Assembly: GCF_055900595.2 (NCBI RefSeq)
Contig: NZ_CM148325.1
DNA: 64,000 nt
Reading direction: 5' to 3' (one strand)
Shown: in pieces, positions 5,864-38,911 of the stretch
How the letters are laid out: each line of letters opens with the position of its first letter
Position numbering within the stretch: position 1 is the first letter of the stretch
Translations under genes and position numbers: made by a program
The notes under the pieces: generated by a model
The model's input: only the letters and a program-made list of their open reading frames with translations
Databases searched by the model: none
Told to the model about the DNA's origin: nothing

Positions 5864-6943
5864 TTAATTAATTTCAAAATCCAAATCCAGGTCGTCTTCT
5901 TTTTCATCAGTCGAAGACCCATTTTTACGCGCCAGACTTTTCAGCACGTTCACGCAGACTGCCGTCACCACTGCTCCGACAGCCACTGCGGCGATATAAC
6001 CCAGCTTGCCTTCAACCACCGGCAGCACAATCAGACCACCCCAGCCTGCATAGCACTGCGCACCGACCAGCGCCGCAGTTACTGCACCACAAACTGAACC
6101 GACCATGATGGAAGGAATGACACGCAGCGGATCGGCAGCGGCGAAAGGAATCGCCCCTTCAGTAACACCAACGCACCCCATCACCAGCGCCGCTTTGCCG
6201 GTTTCGCGCTCTTCTGCAGAGAAATTTTTACGACCAATCAGCGTCGCCAGCCCCATGCCCAACGGTGGAACACAAATCCCAACAGCGGCAATAGCCACCA
6301 CGGTATAAACACCCTGAGCAACGCAAATCAGCATGAAGGCATAGGCCACTTTGTTAACCGGACCACCCATATCGAACGCCAGCATCAGCCCCATGATCAC
6401 CGCCAGCATAACAATGCTGCCCTGCTGCATCCCCTGTAGCCACTGAGTCAGGCTGTTGGTCAACGCACCCACCGGCTCGCCCAGTCCCCACATCATGACA
6501 CCAGCGGTAATCAGTGTGCCGACGATCGGAATGATGAAGATTGGCATCACCGAGCGCAGAACTTTATGCACCGGAATTTTCTTCAGATAATGCACCACGA
6601 TGCCGCCGATAATCCCTGCGATCAGCGCACCAAAGAAGCCCGCGCCAAAGCTGTTACCAACCCAGGCACCGATGGCGCACGGAGCCAGCGCAGAACGTTC
6701 TGCAATGGAATAACCGATGTACGCTGCGAGGAAAGGCACCATCAGCGTCAACCCCGCAACGCCGATATCAAACAGTTTTTTTAGATTCGGATCGGCTACG
6801 GCATCCGGCACTGCGCCTTTGCCATACAAAATGACGGAAACCTCCAGCAAAATACCGCCCGATACCACGAAGGGAATCATATGTGAAACGCCCGTCATTA
6901 AATGCTGACGGGTATTTTTCAGGATCTGCACCAACTCATTCAT
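5864..6943 (-). CDS. frwC: PTS fructose-like IIC permease FrwC
   Basis: Polytopic membrane ORF; start placed at MNELVQILK…. Confidence 0.85.
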   Translation of the reverse strand: MNELVQILKNTRQHLMTGVSHMIPFVVSGGILLEVSVILYGKGAVPDAVADPNLKKLFDIGVAGLTLMVPFLAAYIGYSIAERSALAPCAIGAWVGNSFGAGFFGALIAGIIGGIVVHYLKKIPVHKVLRSVMPIFIIPIVGTLITAGVMMWGLGEPVGALTNSLTQWLQGMQQGSIVMLAVIMGLMLAFDMGGPVNKVAYAFMLICVAQGVYTVVAIAAVGICVPPLGMGLATLIGRKNFSAEERETGKAALVMGCVGVTEGAIPFAAADPLRVIPSIMVGSVCGAVTAALVGAQCYAGWGGLIVLPVVEGKLGYIAAVAVGAVVTAVCVNVLKSLARKNGSSTDEKEDDLDLDFEIN

Positions 6944-13455: not shown

Positions 13456-15690
<2,235 letters not shown>

Positions 15691-15964: not shown

Positions 15965-16858
<894 letters not shown>

Positions 16859-16904
16859 TTACCTCATCAATCGCTTGTAGTTATATGTTGTGTTGTGCAC
16901 ATCT

Positions 16905-16940
16905 ATCCGTTTAGACGTCCAGATGTAAAGATGAAGGAAA
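16905..16940 (-). promoter_or_regulatory. metF promoter with tandem MetJ operator repeats (met boxes)
   Basis: agacgtcc agatgtaa agatgaag tandem 8-bp repeats matching the AGACGTCT met-box consensus, 50-80 bp upstream of metF. Confidence 0.6.
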
Positions 16941-17150
16941 AGCTGAAGGGCGTCAACCGAAAAATGACCAATGATGGTGAGGAAAAATCAGGGAAGATGA
17001 AAAAAACTCATCTTAATTAGAGGTAATAAAGAGATTTCTTTATAGCGCAATCAACCTCACTCGTTTTGACTGATATACAGGCAACACAACGGCACCTGTT
17101 CTCATTCGAAAAACAACGCCCTGCCACCAGATGGTGATGCTAAAGCATCT

Positions 17151-17181
17151 GATTCGGCCTGCGCTCTCGTGTAGGCCGAAT
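17151..17181. terminator. Stem-loop downstream of island nucleotidase paralog 1; possible terminator near the left island boundary
   Basis: attcggcct…aggccgaat inverted repeat. Confidence 0.3.
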
Positions 17182-17237
17182 ACAGAATCTGCGAAATCAA
17201 CTGGTAACAAACAGTAGAGTCAACTCAGTGCGTACTT

Positions 17238-18797
17238 TTATTTAATATCTTTCACGCGCATACCGTTGATCTGTTCATCCGTGATGGTGTTACCCGCTTT
17301 AAAGTAATCAACCACCGCGTGATAAACGTAATAACCGCCCGTCGTATTGCGCGCTTTACCCTCGGTAAACGCGGTAAAACCATCTCCACCATCAGCAAGG
17401 AAACTCTGAGTAGCAATGTGGTAAACCGTCGCATCTTCAATCGGTTTGCCATTCAGCGTCAGCGAGATAACCCGCTGACCAACCGGCTTGCTGCTGTCGT
17501 ACTTCATTTCCAGGCCTTTCGATACCTGTAAAACGCCATTACTTAAACTTGCGCCGTGTTCCATCAAACCGCGTAATTGTTTACCCGTGAGTTCCATCGT
17601 CACCAGTTCGTTGGGGAACGGGAAGGTACTGATGACGCCACCCATCGTAATTGCACCCGCCGGGATCTCATTGCGAATCCCACCAGAGTTGGTTAACGCC
17701 AACTGGGTATTTTTACCCGCCGCTACCAGTAAAGCGTCCGCCGCCAGGTTCCCCAGGGATGCCGATTCACCATAGGCACGTTTTAATTCAACTGGCGATT
17801 GCGCCACCGTTTGCTGCACGACTTCATCCAGCTTTTTATTCCAACTATCAATCACCTGTTTTGTTTGCGCATCGGGCTTCCACTCGTCGGCGTAAAGGGT
17901 TTTAAGCTCGAAGTTTTTCACCGTAAAAGTGTGCGGTTTCTCTTTGTAGTCGAGAACCAGTTTACCCACATCAATCCCACCGCTGTCAGTGGAGAGGATG
18001 AGCGTATTGCCGACTTTAATCGGTTCCGGCGTACCCACATGTGCATGCCCGGTGATCAAAATATCCAGCCCTTTCACCTGACTTGCCGTCTGAATATCTT
18101 TATCCAGTGCGCGGCGCACATCTGTGCCCCCCATACTGGACTGGCGGGCCGGAACACCTTCGTGAATCAGCGCAACGGTCAAATCAACCTTGCCTTTGAG
18201 TTCATCGATATAACGTTGTAGCCATTTAATTTCATCACGCGCCTCAATACCCACTCGCGTTGCCGCAGATACCGTATCATTAAAGGCAAATACACCGTGC
18301 AAACCTATAACACCAATTTTCACGCCGTCTTTTTCAATAATGGTATATGGCTTATCCCAGAATGATTTACTGCTGTTCTGATAAAAAACATTACCCTGCA
18401 CAATCGGGAATTGTGCCTGACTCAACTGTAATAACGTATTGTCCCAGCCGTGATCAAATTCATGATTACCTATAGTGGCCGCATCGAACGGCATGGTATT
18501 CATAATATCGATAATCGCCTTGCCTTTAGTCAGGCTGCTGATATACGGCCCGGTAAAATAGTCACCCGCATCAAAAAACCAGGTCGCTTTGTTTTTAGCT
18601 TTTTCTTGTTTAACAAGCGTAGTGATATTTGCCCAGCCGCCAATATCCCGTTTACCCTCAGCAATCCACGGCACTTTATAGGGCTCTACATGTGCGTGGA
18701 GGTCATTGGTATAAATAATGGTGACATCTTTGGCGCAGGCCCAAAACGGCAGTGTTAATGCGATACCCGCAGCAAGCATTTTAATTTTCATAAACAA
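17238..18797 (-). CDS. Island paralog 1: secreted 5'-nucleotidase/UDP-sugar hydrolase-like metallophosphoesterase (UshA family)
   Basis: N-terminal signal peptide; metallophosphatase motifs DLHAH, DAGDYF, GNHEFD, HEG, GHAH; C-terminal 5'-nucleotidase-like domain; no K-12 counterpart at this locus. Confidence 0.8.
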
Positions 18798-18850
18798 TCC
18801 CTTCCAGTGAGATAAAGGATTGCTACATTACGTTCTGAAAGGCTTTTTTA

Positions 18851-18866
18851 TGTGAGAATACTCACA
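18851..18866. promoter_or_regulatory. Perfect CRP-binding palindrome in the divergent intergenic region between island paralog 1 and the Zn-ribbon gene
   Basis: tgtga-gaatac-tcaca equals the TGTGA-N6-TCACA CRP consensus, with an A/T-rich flank. Confidence 0.55.
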
Positions 18867-18923
18867 TCCAGAGGCAATAACTGTAGGACAAAATCGACGA
18901 CCTTATGAAATCGTTGGTGATAT

Positions 18924-20051
18924 ATGTCAAATCTGTTTGCGATTAATGTCTGTAAAACGTTCGGTTGTCGAAATTTGGGATTGGCCTCATCGGAAGATTA
19001 CAGTTGGCCAGACTATAAACTGGGTTTTCCGGCACTGCACTGCCAGGCATGCGGAAGTTACCCCCCTTTGTTTGATGAACAACAATTTCGTGACTGGTTG
19101 TCAGTTCACATGACTGCGTGTGCCATAGAAACAGGGCATTTTTGTCCATCATGCTATTGTAAAGAAAAGATTTTTTATGGCCACAACCCGCATGGAACAC
19201 AACGCGTTCAATGCCGTTCATGCAAAAAAGTCTGGACTCCGAAACAGCAGCCAGCAAGAGAAATTACGTATCCCCAGTCCATTGAAACCGTTCAACTGTT
19301 CATGCCCTTTCAAGGAGCCAGCGCACTACAAAAGCTCTATGTTTTAGTCAGTCTTGACGCCACTCGTGGCAACATCCTTCATCTCTCCACGAATTATACG
19401 CAACATCAGACAGGAGACAGTCTGCGGTACAGTTACAGAGGCAATACAGAACCAACTGAGCACCATAGCGATATTGTGCAGAGGGTAGATATGCGTGAAG
19501 CGCAATTCTTGCGCCGGAGCCAGTTCGATGAAATTCAGTATGGCAGTGCTGTGCTCAAGCGCAATGGCAAGGGAGCCATACTACGCCCGGTTATCACGGC
19601 TCACGGGCATTTCAGAATACTGAAAATCCGCTTTCCACATGTCAAAACGCATATCATTTCACACGAATGTTTTCTGAGAGGCGCAATTATTACAGCCTGG
19701 GCAGATCAGTTCCGCCAACAACAAGGCGAACTTTGGTTCGTAGAAGAAGAAATCAGCGACCGTAACGCTGATATTCCCTGGCATTTTCAGGGAACGACAT
19801 ACCATGGTTGGTGGCAAAATCAGTGGCAACGCTGGGGGCAGGGGAATAACAGCAAGATGGTCTGCCTGCTCACAGGAGTCTCCTTAGAAAGGGGCGCAAA
19901 TGTTTCTCTGGCAACCAGTCGTTGCTTTATCACATGGCTGACAGACCAACACGACTTTACCCAAAGCGCGTTATTATCCGCAGGTCGCGTAACGAAAATG
20001 CTGACCTCACTGGCGTTAAAATACAATGAATCGCTCACTCCATCTTGTTAG
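18924..20051 (+). CDS. Cys-rich Zn-ribbon protein resembling an IS1595/ISXO2-family transposase; catalytic integrity uncertain
   Basis: FCPSCYC…(12 aa)…RVQCRSCKKVW follows the CPxCG…RYxCKxCxKxF transposase Zn-ribbon pattern; a downstream stretch (THIISHECF…FVEEEISDRN) loosely resembles the end of a DDE domain. Confidence 0.55.
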   Translation: MSNLFAINVCKTFGCRNLGLASSEDYSWPDYKLGFPALHCQACGSYPPLFDEQQFRDWLSVHMTACAIETGHFCPSCYCKEKIFYGHNPHGTQRVQCRSCKKVWTPKQQPAREITYPQSIETVQLFMPFQGASALQKLYVLVSLDATRGNILHLSTNYTQHQTGDSLRYSYRGNTEPTEHHSDIVQRVDMREAQFLRRSQFDEIQYGSAVLKRNGKGAILRPVITAHGHFRILKIRFPHVKTHIISHECFLRGAIITAWADQFRQQQGELWFVEEEISDRNADIPWHFQGTTYHGWWQNQWQRWGQGNNSKMVCLLTGVSLERGANVSLATSRCFITWLTDQHDFTQSALLSAGRVTKMLTSLALKYNESLTPSC

Positions 20052-20169
20052 TCAATACACTCGACAAACGACCATAAATTAATGGGATCACTATTTCTCA
20101 TTTAATTAAATATATGAATGTATGACTGAAAAATATAATCACAGTCAATGTTTAATTAATAACATTATT

Positions 20170-20185
20170 TGTTACTAAGATCACA
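20170..20185. promoter_or_regulatory. CRP-like site (one mismatch) in the AT-rich promoter region upstream of island paralog 2
   Basis: tgtta-ctaaga-tcaca, about 95 bp upstream of the ATG at 20281. Confidence 0.3.
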
Positions 20186-20280
20186 TAATACTTTCCTGAC
20201 CTATGCTTACATAAAAATAAGACACGGAGTTCCTTTTATTTAAATAATTCAACCAATGTAACAACCCCTATCAAGGAGGG

Positions 20281-21834
20281 ATGATGAGAACTGTATTTAC
20301 GACTTTATCAGTCATATTCAGCGTGATGTTTTCTCACAGTATACTAGCTCAGGACGTTACTATTTATTATACGAATGATATTCACGCACATGTCAATCCG
20401 GCAAAAATTCCCGCTGTTGATAAGAACAGACTTGTAGGTGGTATGGCTAATATTGCAGGCATCGTTAATGAAGCGAAGAAAAAAAACAAAGATGTCTTTT
20501 TCTTTGATGCAGGCGACTATTTTACCGGTCCGTATATCAGTACCCTGACCAAAGGTGAAGCTATTATTGATATCATGAACACCATGCCCTTTGATGCGGT
20601 GTCCGTTGGTAATCACGAGTTCGATCACGGCGTGCCCAATATGGTATCTCAGTTATCAAAAGCAAAATTCCCCATTCTGCTGGGAAATATTTACTACACC
20701 GATACAAATAAACCAGTTTGGGATCATCCGTGGACTATTATCGAAAAAGATGGTTTAAAGATTGGTGTGATTGGATTGCATGGTGCATTCGCTTTCTATG
20801 ATACAGTCGCGGCAAAAGCACGTGAAGGCGTAGAAGCCAGAGACGAAATTAAATATTTAAATAAAGCACTTGCAGAATTAAAAGGTAAAGTCGACATTAC
20901 CGTTTTGCTAATTCACGAAGGTGTTCCGGCGCGTCAATCAAGCTTTGGTAGTAAAGATGTGGAGCGGCTACTACAGGCAGATATTGAGACAGCTAAAAAA
21001 GTGAATGGTGTTGATGTCTTAATTACCGGTCACGCACATGTCGGAACACCGCAACCAATAAAAGTTAATAACACATTAATTGTATCTACCGATGCATACG
21101 GCACCGACATCGGAAAACTTGTGCTTGATTACAATCCGAAAACGAAGAAAATTGATAGTTATAATGGTGAGTTAATCACCATCTTCGCAGATCAATTTAA
21201 ACCTGACACCATCGTTCAAAATACTATCGATAAATGGAGTGCAAAGCTTAACAAAATAACACAGGAAGTTGTCGGCCATTCTCCCGTAGTTTTAACACGT
21301 GAGTATGGCAGTTCTTCTTCTACCGGTAACCTTATTCTTGATGCAATGATGGAAAAAACACCAGATGCCATTGCCGGATTTCAAAATAGCGGTGGGATGC
21401 GAGCTGATTTTCCTAAAGGTGATATCACGCTGGGAGATGTTATTAGCACATTCCCCTTTAATAATGACCTCATCGAGATGGATTTGACGGGCCGCGATCT
21501 CAAATCGTTGATGACGCATGCAACCAATCTAACTAACGGTGTGTTACAGGTTTCAAAAAGCGTTGCGGTTGTCTATGACAGCAAAAAACCACTGAACCAA
21601 CGGTTAATCTCTTTCACCATTAACGGCAAACCCGTGGAAGATAATCAAACATATCGTATTGTCACGCACTCCTTTTGTGCCAGTGGTGGTGACGGTTTTG
21701 AAGCATTTTTGAATGGAAAAAATGTGAAGACGATACCGGGAACAACCTCGGCGGAATCTATCATCGATTATTTCAAAAATCATAAACCTGTCACCCCAGA
21801 CTTAACTAAACGAGTAATGGACGTCGCCAAATAA
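20281..21834 (+). CDS. Island paralog 2: secreted UshA-family 5'-nucleotidase-like metallophosphoesterase
   Basis: Signal peptide; DIHAH, DAGDYF, GNHEFD, GHAH motifs; AT-rich codon usage. Confidence 0.8.
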   Translation: MMRTVFTTLSVIFSVMFSHSILAQDVTIYYTNDIHAHVNPAKIPAVDKNRLVGGMANIAGIVNEAKKKNKDVFFFDAGDYFTGPYISTLTKGEAIIDIMNTMPFDAVSVGNHEFDHGVPNMVSQLSKAKFPILLGNIYYTDTNKPVWDHPWTIIEKDGLKIGVIGLHGAFAFYDTVAAKAREGVEARDEIKYLNKALAELKGKVDITVLLIHEGVPARQSSFGSKDVERLLQADIETAKKVNGVDVLITGHAHVGTPQPIKVNNTLIVSTDAYGTDIGKLVLDYNPKTKKIDSYNGELITIFADQFKPDTIVQNTIDKWSAKLNKITQEVVGHSPVVLTREYGSSSSTGNLILDAMMEKTPDAIAGFQNSGGMRADFPKGDITLGDVISTFPFNNDLIEMDLTGRDLKSLMTHATNLTNGVLQVSKSVAVVYDSKKPLNQRLISFTINGKPVEDNQTYRIVTHSFCASGGDGFEAFLNGKNVKTIPGTTSAESIIDYFKNHKPVTPDLTKRVMDVAK

Positions 21835-21868
21835 AATATCATTTATCAGTCTATTTATTTAACAAGGA

Positions 21869-23494
21869 ATGCGAATGAAAACAGTGCAGCGTACTTTACT
21901 TGCCGCAACATTGCTGACTATTTTTTCGGTCTCAGCCATGGCGCAGGATGTCACGATTATTTATACCAATGATCTTCACGCTCATGTGGATTCTTATAAA
22001 GTGCCGTATATCGCAGACGGAAAACGCGACATTGGCGGCTTTGCCAATATATCTACTTTAGTAAAACAAGAGAAAGCGAAAAATAAAGCCACCTTTTATT
22101 TTGATGCTGGAGACTATTTCACCGGCCCTTATATCAGCAGTCTGACAAAGGGCGAAGCAATAATTGACATTATGAATACCATGCCTTTTGACGCAGTATC
22201 AATCGGTAATCATGAGTTTGACCATGGCTGGGATAATGCCCTGCGACAATTAAGCAAAGCGAATTTTCCTGTTTTATTGGGCAATGTTTATCATAAAGAG
22301 AGTGAGAAACCCTTCTGGAACAAGCCCTACACCATCCTGGAAAAAGATGGCATCAAGATTGGTATTATTGGGCTACACGGCGTATTTGCATTTAATGATA
22401 CGGTCTCGGAGCTCTCTCTCCAGGGACTCGATAATGACAATAATAACCGCTTTGATAAATCTTCCGAGACCCTTAAGAATCAGGGGATTGAAGCACGTGA
22501 TGAAGTGAAGTATTTGCAGCATTATATCGACGAGTTACGTGATAAGGTTGACCTCACTGTGGCGCTGGTTCATGAAGGCGTTCCGGCGCGTCAGTCCAGC
22601 ATTGGCAATACAGATGTTAGACGCGCTCTTGATAAAGATATTCAAACCGCTAGCAAGGTGAAAGGATTGGATATTCTGATTACCGGGCATGCCCACGTCG
22701 GAACGCCAGAGCCAATCAAAGTCGGCAACACCTTAATCCTTTCAACTGATAGTGGCGGTATCGATATTGGTAAATTAGTCCTTGATGTCAACCCTACAGC
22801 TCGTACCCATAAAATGAAGAGCTTTGAGCTGAAAACAGTTTATGCCGATGAATGGATACCCGATCCAACGACACAAAAAGTTATCAATGGCTGGAATAAA
22901 AAACTGGCGGATATTGTACGCCAACCAGTGGGTGAATCATCGATTGCATTAACTCGCGCCTATGGTGAGTCATCGCAACTAGGCAACCTGTTTACCGATG
23001 CAATGCTTGTCGCTGCTCCGACTGCACAGATTGCATTGATAAACTCCGGCAGCTTACGTGCGGATATAAATGCAGGCACGATTACCTTTGGCGACATTAC
23101 CAGTACATTCCCCTTCAAGAATGAACTTACTGAAATGGATCTCAGCGGTAAGGATCTGCGTAACCTACTGGAACACGGGGCATCGCTTACCAATGGCATC
23201 CTGCAAATGTCAAAAGGCGCAGAAATGCGCTATACCCCGCAGAAACCAGTAGGTCAGCGCATAGTATCTTTTAAAATTAATGGTGAAGAGATCGTTGATA
23301 CGAATATTTACCATGTTGCAACAACGACTTTCCTTGCACTGGGGGGCGATGGTTTTCTGGCATTCAAAGAAGGGAAAAATGTTCAGGTCCGCGCCGGAAA
23401 TAACATGTCCGATGTCGTGATCGATTATTTGAAGAAAGGCCACAAGATTACGCCTGCACAGGTAAATGAAATGCGGGTGGACGTTAGCAAATAA
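21869..23494 (+). CDS. Island paralog 3: secreted UshA-family 5'-nucleotidase-like metallophosphoesterase with a ~24-aa Asn/Asp-rich insertion
   Basis: Signal peptide; same motif set; closest by eye to paralog 1 but with an extra ELSLQGLDNDNNNRFDKSSETLKN segment. Confidence 0.8.
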   Translation: MRMKTVQRTLLAATLLTIFSVSAMAQDVTIIYTNDLHAHVDSYKVPYIADGKRDIGGFANISTLVKQEKAKNKATFYFDAGDYFTGPYISSLTKGEAIIDIMNTMPFDAVSIGNHEFDHGWDNALRQLSKANFPVLLGNVYHKESEKPFWNKPYTILEKDGIKIGIIGLHGVFAFNDTVSELSLQGLDNDNNNRFDKSSETLKNQGIEARDEVKYLQHYIDELRDKVDLTVALVHEGVPARQSSIGNTDVRRALDKDIQTASKVKGLDILITGHAHVGTPEPIKVGNTLILSTDSGGIDIGKLVLDVNPTARTHKMKSFELKTVYADEWIPDPTTQKVINGWNKKLADIVRQPVGESSIALTRAYGESSQLGNLFTDAMLVAAPTAQIALINSGSLRADINAGTITFGDITSTFPFKNELTEMDLSGKDLRNLLEHGASLTNGILQMSKGAEMRYTPQKPVGQRIVSFKINGEEIVDTNIYHVATTTFLALGGDGFLAFKEGKNVQVRAGNNMSDVVIDYLKKGHKITPAQVNEMRVDVSK

Positions 23495-23506
23495 TAAAAA
23501 AATTAT

Positions 23507-23541
23507 AATGCCATTCATTCACTGAATGGCATTATTTTTCT
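23507..23541 (+). terminator. Rho-independent terminator or attenuator between paralog 3 and the Tsx-like gene
   Basis: aatgccattcattcactgaatggcatt hairpin followed by atttttc. Confidence 0.55.
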
Positions 23542-23572
23542 CTAAATCAACAATAAATAATGAGATATATTT

Positions 23573-24433
23573 ATGTGTATAAAAAAGCACGGGATAGCTT
23601 TATCGATTCTATTAATACCTTGCATTGGAAACGCTCAGGAAATTAAAAGTGAGGAAGGCTGGTTACATCAAAGCTTGAATGTCATTGGTCGCACAGACTC
23701 TCGCTTTGGCCCAAGGCTGACTAACGACCTCTACCCTGAATATACTGTAGCAGGAAGAAAAGACTGGTTTGATTTTTATGGTTATGTTGATCTACCAAAA
23801 TTCTTTGGCGTCGGCAGTCACTATGATGTTGGGATCTGGGATGAGGGCTCACCACTATTTACGGAAATAGAACCTCGGTTTTCCATTGACAAATTGACCG
23901 GATTAAATCTTGCGTTCGGCCCTTTTAAAGAATGGTTCATTGCAAACAACTATGTCTATGATATGGGTGACAACCAGTCATCCCGGCAAAGTACATGGTA
24001 TATGGGGCTTGGTACAGATATCGACACGGGTCTACCAATTAAGCTTTCTGCCAATATATACGCCAAGTATCAGTGGCAAAACTATGGTGCCGCTAATGAA
24101 AATGAATGGGACGGATATCGATTCAAAATAAAATATAGCATTCCTCTTACCCATTTATTCGGAGGGCGATTGGTATACAATAGTTTTACTAACTTTGATT
24201 TTGGCTCCGATCTTGCGGACAAATCACACAATAATAAACGAACCAGTAATGCTATTGCTTCAAGCCATATCCTTTCCCTGCTATATGAACACTGGAAATT
24301 TGCATTTACACTACGTTATTTTCACAACGGTGGACAATGGAATGCTGGGGAGAAAGTTAACTTCGGAGATGGTCCATTTGAATTAAAAAACACAGGATGG
24401 GGAACCTATACTACTATTGGTTATCAATTTTAA
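23573..24433 (+). CDS. Tsx-like outer-membrane nucleoside-specific channel (Tsx/OmpK family paralog)
   Basis: Signal peptide; long collinear similarity to E. coli Tsx (…KDWFDFYGY…[17 protein letters not shown]…[16 protein letters not shown]…[26 protein letters not shown]…); C-terminal aromatic residue. Confidence 0.8.
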
Positions 24434-37952: not shown

Positions 37953-37980
37953 AAAAGGGGAATTAAATTCCCCTTTTTTA
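37953..37980 (+). terminator. rraA intrinsic terminator; left edge of the rraA-zapB islet
   Basis: aaggggaattaaattcccctt hairpin followed by ttttta. Confidence 0.7.
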
Positions 37981-38194
37981 TATGCAAAATATTCATAAAG
38001 ACTATCGTTTGTTTTTATTTAATTCATTTTAAATATCAATAGTTCACATCTGACAATATAAATTAATTATCGATAAATCATTTCATAAAAATATGCAGCA
38101 TTAAAAATTAATGCTATATGGTAAATTAACTATTCTGGGAATAGGGATATGAATCATCGTTAGTAGCGAACGTATTATATAATAAGGGATTGAT

Positions 38195-38911
38195 ATGAGA
38201 TACGTTATCTTATTAATACTATGGATAATAACTACTTTTCTTAGTCATCTTCAGCACAGCAACCTACTGTCTGGAGATCCTGGCATGGTTGGCGAGTATA
38301 TCGGTTCAGTATTTCTGGGGCCGTTGTTACTTCCCGTGCTTGTGTCAGGTATTCTGTGCGCATTTATTAAAAAAAAACGTAACTTCGCCAGTTTTACTCG
38401 CGGGTGCTGTTGGGTATTGGGAATCCTGCTTTTATCCAAAGTCGGCAATACGTTTCGTATGTTTACCCCGTGGCAATATACCTTTGAGAATGCTGCGATA
38501 ACAGTGACTATCCCGAACCGACACTGGAATACGGTTTCCATTAGTACTAATAAAACCATTGATATAAGAAGTGAGGATAATAGCGTCTTCATTTCTGCTT
38601 TCCGCCTGCCCGCAGGACGTAGCGCCGATGACCCGCTGGAAGCGTTAAAGAAGAAGCAGCGAGACAATCTCAAGGATCAATACAATGAGGAAGCCTTCCA
38701 GTTTCATGATTGTAATGCCAAACATTTCACCTGTAAGTATCAGGATGTGTTGATAAATTTTGATGGTCAGCAGAAAAGAACCATCAGTGTTTATCTTGAA
38801 GACACCCCCAGGGCTGTGGGGATCATTGCATTAATGGCGCCAGATACGGCAGATAAATATCGCCAACAGGCGATGGAGATTATGCTTTCCGCTAAAAATG
38901 CAGTGAAGTAA
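38195..38911 (+). CDS. Hypothetical membrane protein (three predicted TM helices plus ~150-aa soluble C-terminal domain); strain-specific insertion
   Basis: 238-aa ORF in a strongly AT-rich segment flanked by the rraA and zapB terminators; hydrophobic stretches at about residues 3-16, 33-56 and 70-82; no recognisable motif. Confidence 0.55.
   Translation: MRYVILLILWIITTFLSHLQHSNLLSGDPGMVGEYIGSVFLGPLLLPVLVSGILCAFIKKKRNFASFTRGCCWVLGILLLSKVGNTFRMFTPWQYTFENAAITVTIPNRHWNTVSISTNKTIDIRSEDNSVFISAFRLPAGRSADDPLEALKKKQRDNLKDQYNEEAFQFHDCNAKHFTCKYQDVLINFDGQQKRTISVYLEDTPRAVGIIALMAPDTADKYRQQAMEIMLSAKNAVK

Follow-up and report, generated by a model that had tools for sequence, protein, structure and literature searches.

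A conserved 43-bp block in the AT-rich spacer of an accessory Escherichia coli nucleotide-scavenging locus suggests a CRP-type promoter

Introduction

What does a spacer of some 230 bp do when it is far richer in A and T than the DNA around it, and how did it come to lie between a gene of transposase-like appearance and a set of genes for nucleotide scavenging? The question is raised by a 64,000-nt stretch of Escherichia coli chromosome, here called the window, in which about 7.6 kb of extra DNA lies between metF and metL. An earlier note on this DNA had read the spacer as a horizontally acquired promoter of the H-NS-silenced type and as an internal boundary between differently composed parts of one island.

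The nucleoside genes and operons deo, tsx, nupG, cdd and udp are activated by CRP and repressed by DeoR and CytR. Promoters under joint CytR and CRP control combine CRP sites in tandem, spaced by about 52 bp, with CytR octamers (GTTGCATT) that lie between the sites or alongside. The control of nucleoside-catabolism genes by DeoR, and the 16-bp operators that it recognizes, have been described (PMC5326754).

The region itself appears in ExPEC and APEC strains as 'GR31, metL..metF', in a paper whose passages on GR31 propose a coordinated nucleoside-processing system (PMC12928451). GR31 has the location and gene set described here, with three UshA-like nucleotidases and a Tsx homolog; in those passages, however, it consists of four open reading frames, the transposase-like gene (hyp) not among them, and neither hyp, the intergenic regions, regulatory sites nor the short and long forms of the locus are discussed there.

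Results

Gene content and forms of the metF-metL locus

The genes and sites of the locus are given in Table 1. All three 5'-nucleotidase paralogs have signal-peptide-like N-termini, and nt3 is 54% identical to nt2 and 65-66% identical to nt1. Three forms of the locus occur in E. coli: an empty form, seen in K-12, which has neither nt1 and hyp nor nt2-nt3-tsx; a short form with nt1 and hyp alone; and a long form, to which the nt2-nt3-tsx cassette is added. The long form is carried by 658 of 5426 complete E. coli genomes (12%) in several allele classes, with spacer identity down to 89%, and the AT-rich spacer is single-copy and confined to these 658 genomes. The short form is also a large class; the 80-90% identity band of the locus search comprises 1174 E. 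coli genomes, assigned to this form on the grounds that, among the matches listed, the query was covered only over its first 38-39%.

Table 1. Positions of genes and candidate regulatory features in the window.
Feature	Position	Strand	Basis or remark
katG	13456-15675	minus	
metF	15965-16855	minus	
nt1, 5'-nucleotidase paralog 1, divergent from hyp	17238-18791	minus	
CRP-type palindrome TGTGAGAATACTCACA in the divergent nt1/hyp spacer	18851-18866	.	only perfect TGTGA-N6-TCACA in the window
hyp, 375 aa, two N-terminal Cys4 modules and a predicted DDE-transposase/integrase-like core	18924-20051	plus	
AT-rich spacer between hyp and nt2	20052-20283	plus	GC 0.284; without annotated feature in RefSeq genomes
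Conserved 43-bp candidate cis-regulatory block	20147-20189	plus	alignment conservation
Dyad A, AATGTT-N8-AACATT (core TGTTT-N6-TAACA), centred at 20156.5	20147-20166	.	
CRP-type site TGTTACTAAGATCACA, centred at 20177.5	20170-20185	.	9 of 10 core positions
Candidate -10, TTACAT at 20207-20212, preceded by TG at 20204-20205 in E. coli	20202-20212	plus	inferred from conserved spacing
Shine-Dalgarno AAGGAGG for nt2 (in AAGGAGGG, 20273-20280)	20273-20279	plus	read from sequence
nt2, periplasmic metallophosphatase/5'-nucleotidase (paralog 2)	20284-21834	plus	Pfam Metallophos and 5_nucleotid_C; RefSeq start
nt3, third 5'-nucleotidase paralog	21869-23494	plus	Pfam
Hairpin with 13-bp stem and T-runs on both sides, between nt3 and tsx	23505-23535	.	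terminator scan
tsx, Tsx-like nucleoside-specific outer-membrane channel	23573-24433	plus	Pfam Channel_Tsx, 4.9e-70; NCBIfam PRK15106
metL	24650-27082	minus	

Several details of the junctions were recorded. The short-form hyp gene and metL overlap by 37 bp at the hyp 3' end and the metL stop, such that the last 12 hyp codons are the antisense strand of the metL 3' end in a convergent arrangement (6662-6698 of loci L002 and L003), and an identical 37-bp overlap is present in Pseudocitrobacter (L006, 9098-9134). Homology between the short and long forms stops at a common TACAA beside the metL stop. At the left junction (17006) similarity to K-12 ends 150 bp past metF, and K-12 replaces the whole locus with about 200 bp of unrelated REP-like sequence (L005, 2151-2348); by eye, a REP-like stretch is also visible in the window near 17130-17180. 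A second type of cluster is found at another chromosomal site, where hyp is divergent from an operon of four to five genes, nt1-(nt2')-nt2-tsx-nt3 (E. coli SCPM-O-B-8794, L011; E. albertii, L013; also L012, L015 and L016), and in some E. coli it is present in addition to the metF-metL pair.

Composition of the spacer and the cassette

The interval from the first base past the hyp stop codon to the last base before the first ATG of nt2 (20052-20280) is indeed as AT-rich as the earlier note had stated: its GC content is 0.284, where the window as a whole has 0.512. A value this low or lower is reached by just 0.42% of 229-bp windows, and the 64 kb has three such troughs, of which this is one. 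AT pairs make up 71.6% of the spacer and about 58% of the cassette, compared with 49% of the window. TpA steps are enriched three-fold in the spacer (12.2 vs 4.3 per 100 nt). The A/T tracts that had been reported there amount to only three runs of at least 4 nt (13 per kb, compared with 10 per kb window-wide), which are unphased and represent no enrichment.

The composition of the genes on either side is not uniform. A GC profile and GC3 by gene bear out the claim that paralog 1 and the transposase-like gene are less AT-rich than paralog 2 and the Tsx-like gene: GC/GC3 values are 0.478/0.508 for nt1, 0.474/0.471 for hyp, 0.407/0.375 for nt2, 0.444/0.441 for nt3 and 0.401/0.359 for tsx, while the flanking core genes have GC3 of 0.58-0.64. 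Taken together, nt1 and hyp have 47.6% GC, against 42.1% for nt2-nt3-tsx (chi-square p = 8e-6). The spacer heads 4.4 kb of approximately 42% GC DNA in a 51% GC genome.

Two further troughs were seen. Between nt3 and tsx (23495-23572) GC falls to 0.205, and a TATAAT lies in the left arm of the bidirectional terminator-like hairpin; the motif TAATGCCATT of this trough recurs just downstream of tsx (24460-24480), so that the two copies bracket the gene. The most AT-rich trough of the window, with a minimum GC of 0.227, is at 37842-38302 between short open reading frames.

Two modules of different history

The nt1/hyp pair also occupies the metF-metL interval of Citrobacter freundii, Pseudocitrobacter and Phytobacter, and it occurs alone, lacking the cassette, in many E. 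coli, Citrobacter, Pseudocitrobacter and Phytobacter. The presence of the pair at the same site in several genera, in Pseudocitrobacter with the same 37-bp overlap, argues that this is an old enterobacterial arrangement. On this comparative evidence the pair at metF-metL is ancestral in the Enterobacteriaceae, and K-12 is a form without it. nt1 is 97% identical between the E. coli forms and 90% identical to its counterparts in Citrobacter and Enterobacter. The two genes of the pair appear to have changed at unequal rates, as the nt1 proteins of the short and long forms are 97% identical and the hyp proteins only 73% (17238-20051 compared with L002, L004 and L006); the hyp genes of two long-form alleles also differ in a divergent patch at approximately 19056-19256.

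The long arrangement, with hyp, an AT-rich spacer and nt2 (and tsx in one of the two loci), is also present at metF-metL of Citrobacter farmeri-like genomes. The same-position nt2 orthologs there are 89-92% identical to the window copy and tsx is 85% identical; the compositional step is sharper, with hyp at 53% GC, the spacer at 30-33% and nt2 at 38-40%. One Citrobacter locus (L033) has nt2-tsx without nt3.

A sliding comparison of the window hyp with that of Pseudocitrobacter gives 86-95% identity up to about 19856 and around 55% beyond it; at that point the gene becomes more similar to the Citrobacter long form. This switch within the gene implies that the low-GC cassette was acquired in this E. 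coli lineage through recombination, one breakpoint being in hyp. The alignments place that breakpoint near 19856, inside the 3' end of hyp and around 190 bp upstream of the AT-rich block, and the end of hyp from there on is, by the same comparison, of Citrobacter-like ancestry. The internal boundary that had been proposed at the AT-rich block is therefore real as a compositional step, which falls at the hyp stop codon, but there are two boundaries, some 190 bp apart. The description of the whole locus as a horizontally acquired island needs to be divided. It suits nt2-nt3-tsx, which is present in only part of the genomes, has GC3 of 0.36-0.44 against 0.58-0.64 for the core genes and has its nearest relatives in Citrobacter; it does not suit the ancestral nt1/hyp pair, and the locus is not one foreign block.

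A conserved block within the spacer

The spacer alignment comprised six sequences from only two genera, four of them E. coli alleles and the other two Citrobacter orthologs. The spacer is 232 bp long in E. coli and 308 and 376 bp in the Citrobacter loci. Conservation is concentrated in a single block of 43 bp, in which 36 of 43 columns are invariant, compared with 50 of 155 elsewhere in the spacer (Fisher p = 1.6e-9), and in which E. coli and Citrobacter are 88-91% identical, against 41-50% in the flanks. The block keeps its distance to nt2, with 93.5-106.5 nt between the centre of the CRP-type site and the ATG, while its distance to the hyp stop varies widely; this indicates that it belongs to nt2.

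The block contains two palindromic elements. The upstream element, dyad A, is conserved in Citrobacter, and its full AATGTT-N8-AACATT form has its sole perfect match in the window here. The second element, whose centre is 21 bp from that of dyad A, corresponds to the CRP-like half-site pair of the earlier note, which matches the core TGTGA-N6-TCACA at nine of ten positions. The window has only six sites with no more than one mismatch, TGTTACTAAGATCACA among them, and a site this good has a chance of 0.6-1.2% of occurring in random sequence of the same composition. It is unchanged among the E. coli alleles and has one change in Citrobacter, where the nine of ten are retained; the form across alleles and orthologs is TGT(T/A)ACTAAGATCACA, with TGTAAC at the start of the Citrobacter sites. 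The left half-site lacks the critical second G, being TGTTA or TGTAA and not TGTGA.

Downstream of the CRP-type site, a gap-free 21 nt leads in every aligned sequence to a hexamer of the form TTnnAT (TTACAT, TTTAAT or TTAAAT), and all of the indels, deletions of 1 and 13 nt and an insertion of 9 nt, lie beyond it. As candidate -10 elements these hexamers are weak, matching at three to five of six positions; an alternative of the form TAnnnT lies 5 nt upstream and is represented in the window by TATGCT (20202-20207), which overlaps the candidate. From this spacing we infer a transcription start at approximately 20214-20219. A generic sigma-70 scan did not find the island richer in matches than shuffled sequence, and its single match in the spacer (20219-20248) lies elsewhere and is not conserved.

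The good Shine-Dalgarno sequence that had been noted before the ATG is present, and has AAGGAAG or CAGGAGG as its counterpart in Citrobacter, but the conserved start that RefSeq uses is the second ATG, at 20284, rather than the first. Since this second ATG is the one used by RefSeq and conserved in Citrobacter, the true spacer is 20052-20283. Upstream of the block, an inverted repeat at 20124-20146 is kept among the E. coli alleles by paired changes, GACTG...CAGTC in the window allele and GACCGTG...CATGGTC in 536-type alleles, and is absent in Citrobacter.

The nt1/hyp promoter and related spacers

The divergent spacer between nt1 and hyp has a CRP-type site of its own. The palindrome TGTGAGAATACTCACA has a chance expectation of 2e-4 and lies 20 nt upstream of a TAATGT on the nt1 strand, which again gives the geometry of a class II promoter. 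Among 16 orthologous spacers (Escherichia, Citrobacter, Enterobacter, Phytobacter and others), 14 have it with no more than one mismatch, even as the central six bases vary. CRP-type palindromes are also present in the divergent spacers of distant hyp-family loci, beside nupC-, nupG-, deoB- and deoD-like genes.

Across genera, the 126-bp nt1/hyp spacer (18798-18923) has diverged less than the coding sequence of hyp. Close to the hyp start it has an inverted repeat, CAACGA-N10-TCGTTG, and it also contains the block CCTTTCAGAACGTAATGTAGC. In some species CytR-like TGCAA motifs lie beside its CRP site on the hyp-proximal side.

Local alignment scores of the AT-rich spacer against the canonical hyp/nt1 promoter stay within the null (z <= 2.2), and inspection of the spacers upstream of nt2 orthologs in the nt1-nt2-tsx-nt3 operons revealed no homology to it. 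A metagenome scan with a conserved 19-mer returned only copies identical to E. coli and unrelated chance matches, and no new diversity.

The transposase-fold neighbour

hyp has no Pfam match. An AlphaFold model, built with distant homologs in its alignment, indicates that it has a DDE-transposase/integrase-like fold. The family comprises 143 representatives at 50% identity; among 54 members an InsA-type zinc ribbon is found in 14, and acidic residues are present at D145 (40), D202 (46) and E248 (all 54), which may correspond to the canonical D-D-E triad. The earlier description of hyp as a transposase-like gene thus fits the predicted fold, but the gene behaves as a fixed, single-copy, syntenic host gene and not as an insertion sequence: it occupies one to two places per genome, its metF-metL synteny is fixed across genera, and no terminal repeats were found flanking it. 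In comparison with IS1 InsA and IS1595-type transposases, hyp shares the InsA-like zinc ribbon and the predicted RNase-H-like DDE core, but differs in being single-copy, syntenic, without terminal repeats, with its acidic triad only partly conserved, and paired with scavenging genes.

In every locus examined (L006-L009, L011-L033, L042-L045) the hyp-family gene is divergent beside genes for nucleoside or nucleotide scavenging. These are 5'-nucleotidases with Tsx, or NupC/NupG-like transporters with PNP and deoB-like genes; relatives of hyp at 26-27% identity lie beside deoB/PNP/nupG-like and nupC/PNP genes. A keyword search of the literature, aimed at zinc-ribbon proteins that regulate nucleoside genes, found no paper on the family, and a search by accession number gave no matches. 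That hyp is a transposase-derived regulator is, from this genomic context, a reasonable hypothesis.

Discussion

The alignments and the composition data suggest that the AT-rich stretch most likely serves an accessory nucleotide-scavenging operon of E. coli as an ordinary promoter and control region. More specifically, we think it probable, judging from site spacing and conservation, that the spacer is the promoter and operator of nt2-nt3(-tsx) and that this is a class II promoter dependent on cAMP-CRP. The position of the CRP-type site near -41.5, together with a weak -10 at a fixed 21 nt, suggests this class. Further points in its favour are the perfect palindrome of the nt1/hyp spacer, the CRP-type palindromes at distant hyp-family loci, the scavenging functions of the genes, the strong ribosome-binding site, and a terminator scan that predicted none between hyp and nt2. 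The low-GC cassette, which lies downstream of the older nt1/hyp pair, would serve the periplasmic dephosphorylation of nucleotides and the uptake of the resulting nucleosides. Taking TTACAT as the -10 puts the centre of the CRP-type site at about -41.5 and that of dyad A at about -62.5. Dependence on CRP would switch the operon on when preferred carbon sources are exhausted, as for the classical nucleoside-catabolism genes. Dyad A, two helical turns upstream, may be the operator of a further regulator or a docking site for the alpha subunit of RNA polymerase. The AT-richness would then follow from the low-GC origin of the cassette and the normal composition of promoters.

The hairpin after nt3 suggests that tsx may be transcribed partly on its own. 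Some of the expression of nt2 could come from read-through out of hyp. Palindromes of the TGTGA type could in principle be bound by another protein.

Class II CRP promoters have a site near -41.5 and a weak or absent -35; the spacer shares TGTNA-N6-TCACA placed 21 nt upstream of a weak -10, and beyond its CRP-type site, at the upstream place expected for the alpha C-terminal domain, it is likewise AT-rich. The arrangement is repeated at the nt1 promoter, there with a perfect site. The spacer departs from the class in its left half-site, which is without the key G, and its start is predicted from sequence. With the K-12 nucleoside promoters (deoP1/P2, tsx P1/P2, nupG, cdd and udp, under CRP, CytR and DeoR) it has in common the downstream function, including a Tsx paralog, and the presence of a CRP-type site with an adjoining dyad, whose outer bases resemble the DeoR core TGTTA-N6-TAACA. 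By eye there is no obvious similarity between the spacer and the promoter region of K-12 tsx. The CytR/CRP architecture was not found in the spacer, where there is only one CRP-type site and TGCAA is absent.

The strongest competing explanation is that the AT-rich block is mainly a region of H-NS nucleation and silencing, a xenogeneic promoter kept off, in which the CRP-like site is incidental. The base composition and TpA enrichment described above speak for it, as do its place at the head of a low-GC segment and the patchy distribution of the cassette. The sequence at 20071-20080 also matches the high-affinity H-NS motif, TCGATAAATT, at eight of ten positions. In high AT, TpA enrichment, low GC and patchy distribution the spacer and cassette resemble acquired promoters silenced by H-NS; unlike these, the left module is not foreign, and the conserved block suggests sequence-specific factors. 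AT content alone leaves unexplained why the 43-bp block is conserved at 88-91% when its equally AT-rich flanks are not, and A-tracts are neither enriched nor phased. Silencing as the main role of the block therefore seems to us a serious option, though one with rather less than an even chance. The earlier claim is better divided: binding of H-NS to a spacer of this composition is likely and silencing is plausible, and should H-NS bind, CRP may also serve to counteract it. Composition, conservation, site quality, spacing, synteny and modularity are shown directly by the sequences; the transcription start, dependence on CRP, occupancy by H-NS and any named factor at dyad A are predictions.

A second explanation, which we regard as possible but less probable again, is that the block is the operator of a dedicated regulator, either hyp or DeoR, acting instead of or besides CRP and coupling the cassette to a nucleoside or deoxyribose-phosphate signal. 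Dyad A is conserved as strongly as the CRP-type site, and the two, 21 bp apart, are the only matches to TGTTA-N6-TAACA with at most one mismatch in the 64 kb. The divergent position of hyp-family genes beside scavenging genes in all loci examined, and the InsA-type zinc ribbons of the family, a DNA-binding module, are consistent with hyp in this role. As for DeoR, its palindrome TGTTAGAA-T(A/T)CTAACA is matched in the outer core at nine of ten positions at the two adjacent sites, but the full 16-bp operators (PMC5326754) are matched at only 11 of 16 (dyad A) and 10 of 16; on this sequence match DeoR would be a weak candidate for the factor at dyad A. Also against a dedicated regulator, no second copy of dyad A occurs in the nt1/hyp spacer or anywhere else in the window, and the spacer is without TGCAA octamers of the CytR type.

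It is very improbable that the spacer is an RNA element controlling nt2 (a riboswitch, attenuator leader, small RNA or leader peptide): a 5' UTR of about 65 nt is predicted and short open reading frames can be drawn, but there was no Rfam match at E <= 1 over 16800-24700, the minimum-free-energy fold of the spacer is no better than that of shuffles (z = -0.55), and the region past the candidate -10 is poorly conserved and holds the indels. A leader peptide was rejected, as the short frames are not conserved and the 18-codon frame at 20122 has no start codon in Citrobacter. We give as little credence to a scar or end of a mobile element (an IS end, MITE or attachment site) left by insertion of the cassette; a module junction does adjoin a gene with a transposase fold, but a mobile-element origin was rejected on finding one copy of the spacer per E. 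coli genome, at this locus only, none on plasmids, and no terminal inverted or direct repeats flanking hyp or the cassette. The homology breakpoint inside hyp fits homologous recombination better than transposition.

The gene hyp is more curious than the spacer, and its family merits a separate look. A wider proposal is that it belongs to an undescribed family of domesticated, zinc-ribbon regulators with a DDE-transposase fold that control nucleoside and nucleotide scavenging operons in gamma-proteobacteria, with AATGTT-N8-AACATT as one operator; we consider this unlikely as it stands, but worth stating.

The 43-bp block offers a precise target for mutagenesis or footprinting of the control of the nucleotidase/Tsx cassette, although the spacer itself would be a routine accessory-gene promoter. 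The carriers of the cassette, 12% of complete E. coli genomes, include uropathogen 536 and the extraintestinal strains of the comparative study that describes GR31 (PMC12928451). The picture of the locus is corrected from a single island to an ancestral gene pair with a low-GC add-on. If the wider proposal for hyp is true, the AT-rich block would be the joint control point of a transposase-derived regulator and CRP over an acquired cassette, and the locus would add one more example of host recruitment of a transposase fold, here for regulating nucleoside metabolism.
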